A stretch of 64,000 nt of DNA from Nitrosopumilus sp. (GTDB lineage Archaea; Thermoproteota; Nitrososphaeria; Nitrososphaerales; Nitrosopumilaceae). The DNA is taken from the NCBI GenBank assembly GCA_965223425.1, contig OZ245003.1, positions 128,001-192,000 of the forward strand, in the 5' to 3' direction. Numbering within the stretch: the first letter of the stretch is position 1; the number at the start of each line of letters is the position of its first letter. The notes below the pieces were generated by a model. The model searched no databases and was not told the origin of the DNA. It saw nothing but the letters and a program-made list of their open reading frames with translations. This document shows positions 4,206 to 8,805 of this stretch, in pieces. Made by a program: the position numbers and the translations under genes.

Positions 4206-5002
4206 TGATTTTAAGGCAAGAATTAGTAAATGAAGCAAAAAAGCACGGATTTGCTTTAGATATAATGGCAAAACATTATGTTTTAGGATGGCTTTTACAT
4301 GGAATTCTATCAACTACAATATCAGATAGTTTGATATTCAAAGGGGGAACAGCATTATCTAAAATTCATTATCCTAACAACTGGAGATTATCAGAAGATT
4401 TGGATTTTACAGCATCGAATAGTGAAGAATTTGATACATTTGGAAATGTTTTGAAAAATGAATTACCTGCAATAGTGAAAAATTCATGTGATTTGGACAT
4501 AAAACAAAAAGACGAACCATATACAAATGGCGGATATGTGCGGACAAGATTTTCCTATAATAGCAAAATTGGCACTGGCGCTGTAAAAATTGAAATTACA
4601 GCAGAAAATGTAATAGGAACAGTTGAAAAAAAGCAGTTATTCAAGATTTTTGATTATCCGGATTTGGAAGTTAGAACGTATTCAGTTTCTACAATTCTAG
4701 CAGAAAAACTTCGTGCCATTATAGAACGTGGTTATGTCAGAGATTATTATGATGCATGGAGACTATTGAAAATTGAAAAATTTGATAATGATGCTGTCAG
4801 AAATTTATTTTTAGAAAAATTAAAGCTTAGAGATACAAAATTTGAAGGTATAGAGCAATTTTTTCCTGAAGGAGTTGTTGAAGAATTTGAGACACAGGTT
4901 GAAGAGGGTTTAACAAGATTAAAGGATGAGGAATTGCCTACTATGAGTAATATGATAAAAGAGCTAGAGGCGTTATTAGAAAAAAATATTTTCTTGAATT
5001 AG
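4205..5002 (+). CDS. abiEii: Type IV TA toxin, AbiEii nucleotidyltransferase
   Basis: FKGGTAL, RLSEDLDF, AEKLRA, RDYYD motifs. Confidence 0.9.
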   Translation: MILRQELVNEAKKHGFALDIMAKHYVLGWLLHGILSTTISDSLIFKGGTALSKIHYPNNWRLSEDLDFTASNSEEFDTFGNVLKNELPAIVKNSCDLDIKQKDEPYTNGGYVRTRFSYNSKIGTGAVKIEITAENVIGTVEKKQLFKIFDYPDLEVRTYSVSTILAEKLRAIIERGYVRDYYDAWRLLKIEKFDNDAVRNLFLEKLKLRDTKFEGIEQFFPEGVVEEFETQVEEGLTRLKDEELPTMSNMIKELEALLEKNIFLN

Positions 5003-5202
5003 GATTTAATTAAAATTTATTTTTAAGATATGTGTCATGATAAGTACTGTCATGTTTTGAAGATAGAAATTTCTTACATACATTCTCTTTGTTTCTTAGC
5101 TACGCGTTAATTTTAGAAAGTTATCATAGACATTTTCTCTAGGGTCTTCTATCTCTATCACATCTGAATTAGATGATGGGGCTTTGAGTCAGTAAAGTAG
5201 AG

Positions 5203-5276
5203 TGGGATCGGCAGGATTTGAACCTGCGACCACTAGTCCCCCAGACTAGTATCATACCAAGCTAGACGACGATCCC
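5203..5276 (-). tRNA. tRNA-Pro(GGG)
   Basis: GGGATCG...CTAGT-CTGGGGG-ACTAG...GCAGGTTCAAATCCTGC-CGATCCC-A cloverleaf. Confidence 0.95.
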
Positions 5277-5316
5277 TTATCACATAGACGCAAAATGAAA
5301 TTATTAAATCGTCGTA

Positions 5317-5538
5317 TTGATTAACAAATACATGAAAATGTGCAGTATTTGTCACAAAGTTTCCGCAACAGAACAAGATCATCTTGATTGTATTCAGAGA
5401 AGAAGTATCGAAATGGAAGACGAGAATTTTAAAAATAATATTCCTGAAAAGCTGAATCTGTCAAAAAATAATCAAGATTTAGGTATTGAAGTGAAAGCTA
5501 TCTTAGAGCATCTTACAAAAGAAAAAGAGGAAAAATAA
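5317..5538 (+). CDS. Small hypothetical protein with CxxC...H..C motif
   Basis: ORF with host-like composition. Confidence 0.6.
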   Translation: MINKYMKMCSICHKVSATEQDHLDCIQRRSIEMEDENFKNNIPEKLNLSKNNQDLGIEVKAILEHLTKEKEEK

Positions 5539-5555
5539 TAATTATTTTGACTTGC

Positions 5556-6296
5556 TTATCGTTCTTGAGTTGTAGGTCTTATCAAAATCTCATTAACGTT
5601 AACATGAGATGGAGATTCAACTGCGTACAAAATTGCGTTTGCAATATCTTCTGCTTGTAGTGCTTGCATCTTTTTCGTATTTTCAACAAATCCTTTCAAA
5701 GATTCATCAGTGATTGTATCGTTAAGCTCTGTAGCTACAACTCCAGGTTCAATACTAGTTACTCGGATGTTAGAGCGTACGCTAAATTCTTGTCTTAGTC
5801 CTTCACTGAATGCTGCAACTGCATGTTTTGTTGCACAATAAACACTGCCAGCTGGAAAGACAATTCTTCCGGCTACAGATGAGAGATTAACAATATGGCC
5901 AGATTTTTTTTCTTGCATATGTGATATTACTGCACCTGTAGAATACAGTACGCCCTTGATGTTCACATCAATCATTTTATCCCATTCATCTACCTTGAGG
6001 CTTTTGAAGAAACTCAGAGGCATCAATCCGGCATTATTTACAAGAATGTCAACAGAATTCCATTTATCTAAAACTGCTTTAGCAAAATTTTCACATTCTG
6101 ATCTTTGTGTAACGTCTAGTTTTTGATAAAATACTTCTCCACCGTCAGCGGAGATCTTTTTTGCGAGTTCTTCTAACCTATCAACTCTTCTAGCGCCAAT
6201 AGCTACTTTAGCACCTGCTTTTGATAGTGCCAAAGCAGTGGCAAATCCTATTCCACTGCTTGCCCCAGTTATTATTGCCACCTTATCTTTAATCAT
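5556..6296 (-). CDS. Short-chain dehydrogenase/reductase
   Basis: TGASSGIG, NNAG, YCATK. Confidence 0.92.
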   Translation of the reverse strand: MIKDKVAIITGASSGIGFATALALSKAGAKVAIGARRVDRLEELAKKISADGGEVFYQKLDVTQRSECENFAKAVLDKWNSVDILVNNAGLMPLSFFKSLKVDEWDKMIDVNIKGVLYSTGAVISHMQEKKSGHIVNLSSVAGRIVFPAGSVYCATKHAVAAFSEGLRQEFSVRSNIRVTSIEPGVVATELNDTITDESLKGFVENTKKMQALQAEDIANAILYAVESPSHVNVNEILIRPTTQER

Positions 6297-6371
6297 CTAA
6301 ATACTTCAAACAGGTTCAATTTCAACATCGTAAAAATGTTTAGGCGTTAAGAGATTTCAGGCAGATACTAG

Positions 6372-6535
6372 GGTTCTGTGAAGTTATCGGGAGTTAACCC
6401 CTATAACTCGACTTTGACATATCGACTATTCGGATTACCAATGGTGTGCCGGATTCCGTCATCGCCGGCTCAAAAGTGCCGGACTGCGCTTCACATATGT
6501 CATCTCTACTGCCCCTAAACCTAGGGGGCAGCTTG
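6372..6535 (-). ncRNA. Putative omegaRNA scaffold overlapping the tnpB 3' end and TIR
   Basis: Hairpin 6509-6531; TGACATAT/ATATGTCA pairing (6415-6422 with 6495-6502); GAGTTA/TAACTC hairpin (6391-6409). Confidence 0.6.
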
Positions 6536-7590
6536 CGTGATATGTTGTTCATGGCAGCGACAATATCCCTGTCCATAAACAAACCGCAATTATTACACGA
6601 CAGTTTACGATGCTGTTGCATGTCCTCTTGGAGTCTCTTTCCGCATTGCGGACACTGCGTGCTCGTGTTTCTTGGGTCTACTGTCTCGACTGGCGGGAGC
6701 CCGACCCGTTGGGCTTTGTATTCTATTTGGCGTTGCAGCTCGTAGAATTGCCACCCGTTCAATCTGCGCCTGTACTTGTTGCCCTGACCATTTCCTTTTT
6801 TGTAGAGTTTTCTAACTCCTTTCAGGTTTTCTAGAACGATTGCAGCCTTTTCTTTGACGGCATTATCCACAATATCCTTTGATATTCTGTGGATGCATTG
6901 TTTTGCTCTGTCAGTCAGTCTTCTCTGTTTTTCCTTGCAGAACTGGTTTTTCTTCCTGCGGTCATTTCTGTGGAAGCCTGCCCTGGCGTGTATTGTGTTC
7001 TCCTTTATGGATAGCAGCTTGTTTGTCTTGCAGACTGTCACCCCTTCCTCGCTCCCACACGTCACATTTCTTAGGTTTCTGTCTATTCCAACTTTCTTGG
7101 TGCACTCTATCTCTTGTACTTTTTTTGAAACACAAAGACTGATGTTGAGGGCAGTCAGTGAAAACGAGCGCACCGTCAGGGCGGGATCAGACAGGATTTT
7201 TTGGGCGTGATCGTTGAGTAAAATGTTGATTGGGTTATGCTTCTTGTATGGGATTGTTAGTAGTGCACCGTTGTGTTTTATGCCGTAACAGTTTGTCATA
7301 AAGGGATTTTTGACTATTGGGCCTCTTATTCTGACACCTCGTTTGACTGATTGTTTTCTGTTTGATAATATGCCTGCAGCCCTTGATATTGCATTTAGTT
7401 TGTATGACGATAAAATGTCATAGTTACGTAATTCATGATAACATAACATGGACAGCCTCTTCATATTGTGAGTGTCTTCTTTCAACCCTATCTTGATGCA
7501 ATGATTGGCCATCTTTGTGAATGTAGCCGCCATATCCATTAGGTCAGAGTTCGGCGCATATTTCTGTGATATTGGCTTTATCGCCTTCAG
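6394..7590 (-). CDS. tnpB: TnpB RNA-guided endonuclease (start uncertain; must lie inside the element)
   Basis: RuvC GIDRN, VLENL, DRDIVAA; zinc finger CPQCG...CNNCG. Confidence 0.88.
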   Translation of the reverse strand: MKAIKPISQKYAPNSDLMDMAATFTKMANHCIKIGLKEDTHNMKRLSMLCYHELRNYDILSSYKLNAISRAAGILSNRKQSVKRGVRIRGPIVKNPFMTNCYGIKHNGALLTIPYKKHNPINILLNDHAQKILSDPALTVRSFSLTALNISLCVSKKVQEIECTKKVGIDRNLRNVTCGSEEGVTVCKTNKLLSIKENTIHARAGFHRNDRRKKNQFCKEKQRRLTDRAKQCIHRISKDIVDNAVKEKAAIVLENLKGVRKLYKKGNGQGNKYRRRLNGWQFYELQRQIEYKAQRVGLPPVETVDPRNTSTQCPQCGKRLQEDMQQHRKLSCNNCGLFMDRDIVAAMNNISRKLPPRFRGSRDDICEAQSGTFEPAMTESGTPLVIRIVDMSKSSYRG

Positions 7591-7704
7591 CGAATATCTT
7601 GCGGTTTGGAGGCTTGTACATTTTGGGAATTGACATATAACTCCCGATAACTTCACAGAACCGATACTAGCAACTTTATTAAAAGAAAAATTGCAAAATA
7701 AGTT

Positions 7705-7926
7705 ATGAAGTCTGAAAAATGTGCTTATTGCGGCGATCTGACGGATTTGCCCTTTCAATGCAATTATTGTAAGGACCAGTTTTGTTCAGAACACAGGCTT
7801 CCTGAAGAACACAGATGTGTAAAACTCAGCCAGATTAGAGCAAAAAGATTTGGTGAAAAAAAAGTCATACGAGACGGCGGACCAAACAAGCCAAATATTT
7901 TCAAACGACTTTTTGGGAGATTTTAA
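7705..7926 (+). CDS. AN1-type zinc finger protein
   Basis: CAYCG...PFQCNYC...FCSEHRLPEEHRC. Confidence 0.9.
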   Translation: MKSEKCAYCGDLTDLPFQCNYCKDQFCSEHRLPEEHRCVKLSQIRAKRFGEKKVIRDGGPNKPNIFKRLFGRF

Positions 7927-7929
7927 AAA

Positions 7930-8214
7930 TCAATAAGGGCTTTTGTCAGGAGAAATCTTTGCGCGTCTACCTTGATAGATTAAGGCAATAGCAAGTGCAA
8001 ACATCACCATTGCAGTTAATGGAAAATTTTGGGGAGCAGGCAGAACAAACCAATAGTAAACGCCAAAACCAACAGAGACTGCCGCTTGTACCCAGAGTTT
8101 AATCCATTTTGGAGCTTTGATTAATCTGCTAACAACTTCAACAGAAAAGATTCCAATTACTGGATAAATTGTATAAAATAGAAAATCAATTACATCAACG
8201 CCTGTATGGGACAT
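7930..8214 (-). CDS. Small membrane protein
   Basis: Three hydrophobic segments. Confidence 0.7.
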   Translation of the reverse strand: MSHTGVDVIDFLFYTIYPVIGIFSVEVVSRLIKAPKWIKLWVQAAVSVGFGVYYWFVLPAPQNFPLTAMVMFALAIALIYQGRRAKISPDKSPY

Positions 8215-8247
8215 ATGGTATCAAAATAAAACATGCATAATTTCTAT

Positions 8248-8805
8248 CTAATCTTCCCAACGAACCTTGGTTGCAGCATTTTTGGTAATTAATGCCTGAG
8301 CATTCTCATATGGAATTGTGGCAATGTCCTCAGTTTTGAAGGGACCATATTTTTCAAGATCAGCACCAACAATCTCATCTACTTCTTTGAGAAACCGAAT
8401 AGCAATTTTCTTTATTTTGTGATTCTGGGCTACTGATTCAAGAAATTTTGACTTTCCGTTGATTGTTGCAGAAAGAATCATTTCTGTTCTTTCTTTTTGT
8501 TCCTCTTGTGAATCCAAGATGAATTTTTCTTCGTCTAGGAGATGTCCAATTTCTAGATCAGAAGATTTTGAAATTTTGTCTAATCGAATATGAATTAGTA
8601 GTGATGTTAGTTCTGTTGCCATTTCTATCAAAGCATCTTTGATTTTGCTTTCTATACCATCAAATTCTTGTTTTCTTAAATTACCGATAAAGTCAGCCAG
8701 GTTTCTATAAAAATTTGGATCAATTTCCAATATAGGATTGTTTTCAGTTTCCCGTAAAACTGTATGATGTAAAGAGTTGATATCAATTTGATTTGTTTCA
8801 GACAT
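8248..8805 (-). CDS. GINS subunit (Gins51/15-type)
   Basis: Helical A domain and C-terminal B domain RFLKEVDEIVGADLEKYGPF...IPYENAQALI. Confidence 0.8.
   Translation of the reverse strand: MSETNQIDINSLHHTVLRETENNPILEIDPNFYRNLADFIGNLRKQEFDGIESKIKDALIEMATELTSLLIHIRLDKISKSSDLEIGHLLDEEKFILDSQEEQKERTEMILSATINGKSKFLESVAQNHKIKKIAIRFLKEVDEIVGADLEKYGPFKTEDIATIPYENAQALITKNAATKVRWED

Follow-up and report, generated by a model that had tools for sequence, protein, structure and literature searches.

The question raised by this locus is whether the right end of a small tnpB-carrying transposon also encodes the scaffold of a guide RNA (omegaRNA), and whether the DNA beside it supplies the guide. The locus lies in a 64,000-nucleotide stretch of Nitrosopumilus sp. 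DNA (contig OZ245003.1, positions 128,001 to 192,000), which is referred to here as the window. An initial annotation, made from the sequence of the window, had proposed that the scaffold includes the terminal inverted repeat (TIR), that the predicted guide matches the empty insertion site, and that the site carries a TTG-like TAM.

The element is non-autonomous and present in many copies

The flagged stretch forms the right (3') end of a non-autonomous element that spans 1291 bp on the minus strand of the window (Table 1). The element is bounded by a perfect 25-nt inverted repeat and flanked by an 8-bp duplication. Its sole long reading frame is tnpB, and there is no tnpA inside it. Nine full-length copies, 95 to 100% identical, are present in the same genome, along with two copies broken by other insertions, three copies at 83 to 86% identity and several 3' fragments.

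TABLE 1 Features of the tnpB element, in window coordinates
Feature	Positions	Strand	Remarks
Whole element: left TIR, tnpB, omegaRNA region, right TIR	6372-7662	-	Delimited by the TIR pair, genome copies and the uninterrupted sites of relatives
Left copy of 8-bp target-site duplication, CTAGTATC	7663-7670	-	
TAM-like TTG	7671-7673	-	Abuts the left duplication on its 5' side; W-T-R across the family
Left TIR, GGTTCTGTGAAGTTATCGGGAGTTA	7638-7662	-	Has an in-frame GTG (7654-7656), a possible tnpB start
tnpB reading frame	6394-7656	-	Open from the left TIR; start at the GTG in the TIR or at CTG/TTG at the LKAIK position, 7590
Proposed omegaRNA scaffold, ~164 nt	6372-6535	-	Overlaps the 3' end of tnpB
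Hairpin 1, GCUGCCC/GGGCAGU	6508-6532	-	Loop GGUUU (6517-6521); both sides changed in 5/7 pairs; pairing in 98.1% of cells
Long-range helix, UGACAUA (6496-6502) with UAUGUCA (6415-6421)	6415-6502	-	6/7 pairs changed on both sides
Inner stems within the long-range helix, CCGGC/GCCGG and CGGA/UCCG	6478-6482/6465-6469 and 6455-6458/6431-6434	-	
Terminal stem, GUCGAG (6407-6412) with CUUCAC (6378-6383)	6378-6412	-	Encloses a variable stem-loop; 4/6 pairs changed on both sides
Right TIR	6372-6396	-	Also the final 25 nt of the proposed RNA scaffold; tnpB stop TAA at 6394-6396
TIR tip GAACC	6372-6376	-	Proposed pseudoknot partner of the hairpin-1 loop
Right copy of 8-bp duplication, CTAGTATC	6364-6371	-	Would form the first 8 nt of the predicted guide
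Predicted guide, CTAGTATCTGCCTGAAATCT	6352-6371	-	Duplication plus right flank; length assumed; predicted from the motif position and the mode of action of TnpB

Several features of the copies were noted in passing. The inserts in the interrupted copies (G000:C1:2292745-2293849 and 594882-596149) measure 1105 and 1268 bp, and both encode a 352- to 371-aa protein whose translation resembles, by eye, an IS630-type DDE transposase. Two inverted copies (G000:C1:1325308-1326598, plus strand, and 1451399-1452689, minus strand) have their duplications swapped between left and right, which indicates an inversion of ~126 kb between them. The inversion could have arisen either by recombination between the copies or by intramolecular replicative transposition of the IS6 type, a mechanism described in the text of PMC7986276. 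Three left ends (G000:C1:654737, 785206 and 2062648) begin with ACGTCTGTGAAG instead of GGTTCTGTGAAG and have ~75 nt of upstream sequence in common, two of them more than 1.2 kb; they may represent a variant whose left end is extended, or nesting of the element within another repeat. Four internally deleted derivatives of 344 to 497 bp keep both repeats (G000:C1:1199933-1200276, and L133, L134 and L136 in G201), and the three that we looked into (the G000 derivative, L134 and L136) retain the 3' part with the RNA region. Each of these three also has T-purine at its left flank, with the duplication verified in two only. They may be elements that encode only the RNA and depend on TnpB supplied in trans. 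Across 25 elements, the left TIR tip had 10 mismatches to GGTTCTGT and the right tip had 3, which is a trend only (P 0.09). A tRNA gene on the minus strand (window 5203-5276; Rfam RF00005, 58.9 bits), ~1.1 kb from the element, is unrelated to it.

The tnpB product belongs by sequence to the RNA-guided RuvC nucleases

The tnpB frame matched the NCBIfam model NF040570 (guided_TnpB) at 110.5 bits, above the cut-off of 100, and the Pfam domain Cas12f1-like_TNB at 70.9 bits (E 9.7e-20; cut-off, 26.3). The match to OrfB_IS605 reached only 17.5 bits, which is under its cut-off. PDB chains of Cas12f and TnpB were matched at 6e-11. In the alignment to the Cas12f chain 9nzq_A, the ENL of RuvC-II falls on ED(L), the second D of DRD in RuvC-III falls on an aspartate, and CPQC and CNNC fall on the cysteines of the zinc ribbon. 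The RuvC-I aspartate lies outside this alignment and was read by eye from the sequence as GIDRN. The product is, on these matches, a predicted RNA-guided RuvC nuclease of the TnpB family. The frame is open in all nine full-length copies, and of the 201 genomes of the same family that were searched with the protein, 21 (G000 counted) contained homologues, most of them at 45 to 60% identity.

The start codon was looked at across copies. In all c1-type copies the frame is open from the first base of the left repeat. The LKAIK position (7590) has CTG in the window copy and a TTG start in diverged copies. An ATG at 7636 lies in a different frame, which reaches a stop after 30 codons.

The insertion site is uninterrupted in related genomes

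A DNA search with the left flank gave matches in 40 of the 41 genomes of the same genus (G000 counted). Eleven loci from other genomes, at 82 to 85% identity, were taken from among the best matches; the site was uninterrupted in all 11, and the element is therefore an insertion. It occupies the intergenic region between a short-chain dehydrogenase gene and a zf-AN1 gene. The empty sites read ...TTTTCTTTTAATAAAG(T/G)TG, followed by a single CTAGTAT-like word and then by the right flank. This bears out the initial annotation, in which the target of the empty allele followed AAGTTG: the relatives have AAAG(T/G)TG at this place, with the CTAGTAT-like word once. No empty-allele joint was found in four sequencing runs (the metatranscriptome contigs X1, and X2, X4 and X5, of a kind not on record).

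The sequence TTTTCTTTTAATAAAG(T/G)TG (window 7671-7700; L173-L183) is nearly invariant in 11 related species, in contrast to the variable bases past the insertion point, and resembles a promoter element for the divergent dehydrogenase and zf-AN1 gene pair. The element sits between this promoter-like flank and the dehydrogenase gene and shares the orientation of that gene.

A conserved RNA structure is predicted at the right end

The proposed scaffold, read from 6535 to 6372, folds at -52.8 kcal/mol (z -2.5), a value equalled by 2 of 200 shuffled sequences. Folding energy by itself is modest evidence; the comparative evidence is strong. In order to obtain it, 22 right ends from several genera were aligned over 190 nt (alignment A1), with two loci of the unpublished genome G077 (L045 and L066) excluded. 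A consensus was computed with RNAalifold, a pseudoknot was added, and the pairs were then counted. The consensus has 33 pairs in seven helices, and standard pairs fill 95.5% of its cells, compared with 83.1% in shuffled alignments (none of 500 reached the observed value) and 33 to 52% when the alignment was slid by 1 to 3 columns. Both sides had changed in 18 of the 33 pairs, versus 10.2 for shuffled and 4 to 7 for slid alignments. The covariation score was 0.397, against 0.169 and at most 0.107, respectively. This covariation indicates long-term selection on RNA. G-U pairs are frequent across the consensus and are consistent only with an RNA read from the tnpB sense strand. The seven helices describe a predicted structured RNA that overlaps the 3' end of tnpB and reaches the end of the element.

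Two of the three structures drawn in the initial annotation hold, and the third was redrawn. The words CTGCCCC (6525-6531) and GGGGCAG (6509-6515) are present on the minus strand, and their hairpin is conserved and covaries (Table 1); in copies c11 to c13 it reads CTGTCCC/GGGATAG, a compensatory change. The arms of the 8-bp helix, TGACATAT (6495-6502) and ATATGTCA (6415-6422), are also in place, and this helix is conserved with changes on both sides. The enclosed CCGGC/GCCGG stem is likewise where it was drawn; it is lineage-specific and shows one compensatory change relative to c11 to c13, where it reads CCGGT/ACCGG. The second inner stem changed in the same copies from CGGA/TCCG to TGGA/TCCA. 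As for the third structure, GAGTTA (6404-6409) and TAACTC (6391-6396) exist as words, and the latter forms the inner edge of the TIR and holds the stop codon TAA, but their pairing is not conserved. The minimum-energy fold does not contain this hairpin, and copies c12 and c13 have a deletion that removes its 3' arm. The family-wide consensus has in its place a stem of GTCGAG with CTTCAC.

The inverted repeat forms part of the predicted RNA

The 3' arm of this replacement stem (helix 7), CTTCAC, corresponds to bases 7 to 12 of the TIR. Four of its six pairs have changed on both sides across subfamilies, and we conclude that the inverted repeat and the upstream arm have co-evolved. The claim that the scaffold includes the TIR, and evolves with it, thus stands on a stem other than the one first drawn.

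The outermost bases of the TIR may also be paired. The tip GAACC is complementary to the hairpin-1 loop GGUUU, and all 22 sequences in A1 keep this pairing (99.1% of cells paired). There is no both-sided change among the 22, and both partners are nearly invariant, so the pair count speaks neither for nor against the pseudoknot. In a distant relative, L185, the tip is GAACU and the loop AGUUU, with a G-C pair replaced by A-U, which is a single event. The TIR tip probably pairs with the hairpin-1 loop as a pseudoknot. A pseudoknot at the 3' end of the scaffold is described for prokaryotic OMEGA systems in the text of a 2026 review (PMC13565253). The inverted repeat would have two roles, one as a transposon end and the other as an RNA stem and pseudoknot partner, and it would be a tangible example of a transposase site and a guide-RNA scaffold evolving together.

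A one-sided motif precedes the insertions

If the RNA runs to the tip of the repeat, the guide would consist of the right duplication and the flank, and the TAM would consequently lie just 5' of the left duplication. Insertions were oriented by tnpB and kept if the 8-bp duplication matched at 7 or more of 8 bases; the two copies with swapped duplications, which verify each other, also were kept. The first set comprised 25 insertions, 11 from the genome of the window and 14 from eight other genomes, with L045 and L066 of G077 left out. The second set was drawn from 37 loci in public records, most of them from one Nitrosopumilus sp. genome, of which 24 had a verified duplication. Among the 48 loci L040 to L088 (L060 aside), no credible TIR pair could be made out in 15, owing to decay or to the end of a contig, and these enter no count.

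T at position -2 and a purine at position -1 of the left flank were found in 24 of 25 insertions of the first set (binomial P 2e-19, background 0.147) and in 24 of 24 of the second (P 1e-20), giving 48 of 49 verified insertions. The mirrored right flank had the same bases in 4/25 (P 0.51) and 5/24, a total of 9/49, which is the background level. Position -3 was T or A in 23/25 and 23/24. The trinucleotides of the 49 insertions were TTG (20 cases), TTA (13), ATA (9), ATG (3), CTA, CTG and GTA (1 each) and, as the one miss, TAT. The initial annotation had asked whether other insertions share TTG at this place: they share a motif, the commonest form of which is TTG, but it is W-T-R and not strictly TTG. 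No conserved position was found within the duplication in the second set. The 49 sites all differ in sequence and come from at least 10 genomes and several element subfamilies. With the duplication variable and the conserved motif outside it, the duplication would be part of both the guide and the target, and we infer that W-T-R serves as the TAM.

The motif was less regular in insertions that had no verifiable duplication (13/19 in the first set and 8/13 in the second). One more verified insertion, that of L185, has ATG. A distant tnpB clade (30 to 36% identity) provided only two verified sites, TAT and ATG, which are too few for a comparison of the motif.

The occupied site looks different. 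In the window the filled junction is preceded by GAACC, as had been pointed out, and in all 22 right ends of A1 it is preceded by ACC or ACT, never by T-purine. At an inserted site the target would follow the TIR tip ACC, and so the element's own junction would be spared.

The ends of the element are of the IS6 type

GG tips, a CTGT motif in the repeats and 8-bp direct repeats mark the IS6 family (PMC7986276). The element has GGTTCTGT... at both ends together with an 8-bp duplication. It contains no IS6 DDE transposase; IS6-type DDE genes (DDE_Tnp_IS240, matches to PF13610) are found elsewhere in the genome, where many ends have GGTTCTGTnAAGTT in common with the element. No intact autonomous partner was found in the genome of the window: its DDE genes have a TIR on the 3' side only, and its other TIR-bounded elements contain no recognisable IS6 transposase as read from their frames. 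In a related public genome, however, there is an intact 1970-bp element (L137) with a perfect 25-nt TIR, an 8-bp duplication and a 403-aa DDE gene. The gene matches DDE_Tnp_IS240 at 1.3e-10, and its best NCBIfam match is transpos_IS6 (2.3e-29) at 102.6 bits, below the cut-off of 125. The TIR of L137 is identical to those of the tnpB elements L117, L125 and L132 over the first 18 nt. These common ends suggest that the element is mobilised in trans by an IS6-type DDE transposase.

A further element with IS6-like ends was observed. L138 (G201:C1:699740-703370) is a 3.2-kb element with perfect 25-nt IS6-like repeats whose cargo is a DDE_Tnp_IS240 gene with a SWIM zinc finger and a DNA methylase gene (N6_N4_Mtase, E 1.6e-42). 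A matching duplication was looked for at L138, and none was found.

IS6 elements are described as replicative (PMC7986276). Replicative transposition leaves no excised donor site, and any benefit from homing must therefore arise through other copies of the genome or through the exchange of DNA. A 2025 preprint argues, in its available text, for such a drive in multicopy plasmids (PMC11870625).

RNA sequence data are compatible with an omegaRNA

In the metatranscriptome contigs (X1), the summed word depth was 113 to 213 over positions 6416 to 6577 and 0 to 9 over most of the tnpB frame, contig depth being a measure that cannot rank the parts of a gene. A high-depth run (X2, of a kind not on record) had no such excess over 6416 to 6577. 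One X1 contig bridges the right end of a related copy and continues into 624 nt of unlike flank. Contigs carry no strand, ends or level, and the X1 data therefore are no more than compatible with an omegaRNA.

Alternative explanations of the motif and the structure

The main alternative for the motif is that W-T-R is a target preference of the IS6-type transposase, and that its TAM-like position is a coincidence. We regard this as unlikely. The motif does stand at a fixed distance from the TIR, as such a preference would have it, and the controls are few: a single intact DDE element, plus three short elements bounded by TIRs in which the duplication was verified. Target preferences of DDE transposases are normally palindromic, yet the motif is one-sided, the mirrored right side being at background. 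Moreover, the flanks of L137, the only intact DDE element found, are ACA and CAA, and T-R occurs at just one of the six ends of the three short TIR elements, which have no tnpB. The motif also lies exactly where the TAM of TnpB must fall relative to a guide taken from the flank.

A second alternative concerns the structure. The right end could hold a real RNA or DNA feature that is not a flank-guided omegaRNA, such as an element that terminates or stabilises the tnpB mRNA, or a hairpin bound by the transposase, and TnpB would then work without a guide from the flank. The structure overlaps coding sequence, and an Rfam scan of positions 5000 to 8500 (E up to 1) returned the tRNA and chance hits and nothing in the RNA region. 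This alternative is nevertheless very improbable: the G-U pairs and the covariation are specific to the tnpB sense strand, no equivalent structure was noticed at the left end on reading the sequence, and the flank motif would be left without a role. The architecture, a scaffold extending from the 3' end of tnpB to the end of the element, also is the one described for TnpB in the text of PMC10691335 and PMC13565253.

Least probable of all is that the tnpB copies are inactive, decaying relics and the motif the trace of a past burst from a few TAM-like hotspots, for although the copies differ by 2 to 5% and some are fragments or are interrupted by IS630-like insertions, the frame remains open in all nine full-length copies, the 49 sites differ from one another and are spread over at least 10 genomes and several subfamilies, and the covariation reflects long-term selection on RNA.

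Discussion

We consider it likely that the element is an IS6-ended, non-autonomous transposon that encodes TnpB together with an omegaRNA scaffold of which the TIR is a part, that it takes its guide from the flank, uses a W-T-R TAM, is maintained by homing or retention, and is mobilised in trans. In this scheme the last ~164 nt (6535 to 6372) would encode the scaffold on the tnpB strand. Transcription would continue into the flank, and the guide would comprise the right duplication and the DNA that follows. In an uninserted site, the same 8+n bases would be preceded by W-T-R (here TTG), acting as the TAM. TnpB would cut such empty alleles, and recombination would copy the element in. New sites would be reached by means of an IS6-type DDE transposase supplied in trans. 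Three independent comparative tests support what the initial annotation had proposed, at the level of sequence.

Much of this predicted arrangement is known from TnpB of IS200/IS605 elements such as ISDra2. There, too, a TnpB-family RuvC nuclease is accompanied by a scaffold that extends over the 3' end of tnpB to the right end, the guide comes from the flank (here by prediction), and the TAM lies 5' of the left end, so that only the empty site is targetable. The predicted pseudoknot likewise has its counterpart at the 3' end of the scaffold in those systems (PMC13565253). The differences lie in the transposon. The absence of a TIR and of a duplication, hairpin ends and a Y1 or serine TnpA characterise IS200/IS605 and IS607, and none of these is seen here: the element has no ends for a Y1 TnpA and no subterminal DNA hairpins, and instead has 25-nt TIRs and an 8-bp duplication. 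Unlike in IS200/IS605, the putative TAM is not the target word of the transposase, the duplication separates the TAM from the left end and would supply the first 8 nt of the target, and the last RNA stem is built from the TIR.

That TnpB occurs in DDE transposons is already established. Altae-Tran et al. (2023) described six DDE-associated TnpB branches with inverted terminal repeats, in which no more than 250 bp separate the 3' end of tnpB from the end of the element (PMC10691335). The same text reports that solo tnpB copies have their ends in common with transposase-bearing copies, suggesting mobilisation in trans. Our element resembles these in having TIRs around tnpB and ends common to solo and transposase-bearing copies, and its protein family may already fall within one of the DDE branches of that study. 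The DDE families named for TnpB are IS630 in PMC10691335 and ISL2, IS630 and IS1031 in the review PMC13565253. IS6/IS240-type ends, by contrast, are not named in the available text of either source; nor does that text describe a TAM outside a variable duplication or an RNA stem built from the TIR, both of which are proposed for the present element.

Fanzor1 and Fanzor2 of eukaryotic DDE transposons offer another parallel, as RNA-guided relatives of TnpB carried by TIR elements that duplicate their target. For these, the 5' duplication is described as part of the TAM, and the 3' duplication as lying in the scaffold (PMC13565253). Here, unlike in Fanzor, the duplication is variable and the conserved motif stands outside it; the Fanzor type of duplication use was not found.

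The likeness to the IS6 family (IS26, IS240 and archaeal members) extends to the GG tips, the CTGT motif and the 8-bp repeats (PMC7986276), and IS6-type DDE genes with such repeats are present in the same and related genomes. Unlike IS6 elements, ours has no transposase of its own and carries tnpB. The IS6 review, in its available text, gives one case of a passenger gene and makes no mention of TnpB, and the archaeal clades that it lists exclude this lineage (PMC7986276). In our literature searches, no paper connected TnpB with the IS6 family in this sense, and none covered both Nitrosopumilus and TnpB. What is new here, as judged from the sequence comparisons, is the IS6-like ends, a variable duplication that would start the guide, and a putative TAM outside the duplication.

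The 2026 review treats the association of TnpB with DDE transposons as rare and unexplained in its available text (PMC13565253). The 49 independent insertions constitute a natural data set on this point, with a TAM-like motif that the transposase's own target word would not supply. A motif of such origin, near-universal and one-sided, is informative about what TnpB does for a DDE transposon. It may be that the TAM decides which insertions exist, a proposal that we advance tentatively and hold to be less probable than the reading given above. Either homing would be needed for an insertion to persist, or TAM-bound TnpB would steer IS6-type integration. The first option would amount to an RNA-guided natural gene drive, acting among genome copies or cells of free-living marine archaea and required for the persistence of insertions. 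Under the second, TAM-bound TnpB would direct IS6-type integration 8 bp downstream and in a fixed orientation.

The nuclease is compact (~400 to 420 aa), with a predicted TAM of two to three bases (W-T-R), and would be of practical interest if active. For the ammonia-oxidising archaea, the finding would extend the OMEGA systems to IS6-like elements. If the proposal is true, a replicative transposon of the TIR type depends on an RNA-guided nuclease for its genomic distribution, and its TIR is selected twice over, in DNA as a transposase site and in RNA as a scaffold.
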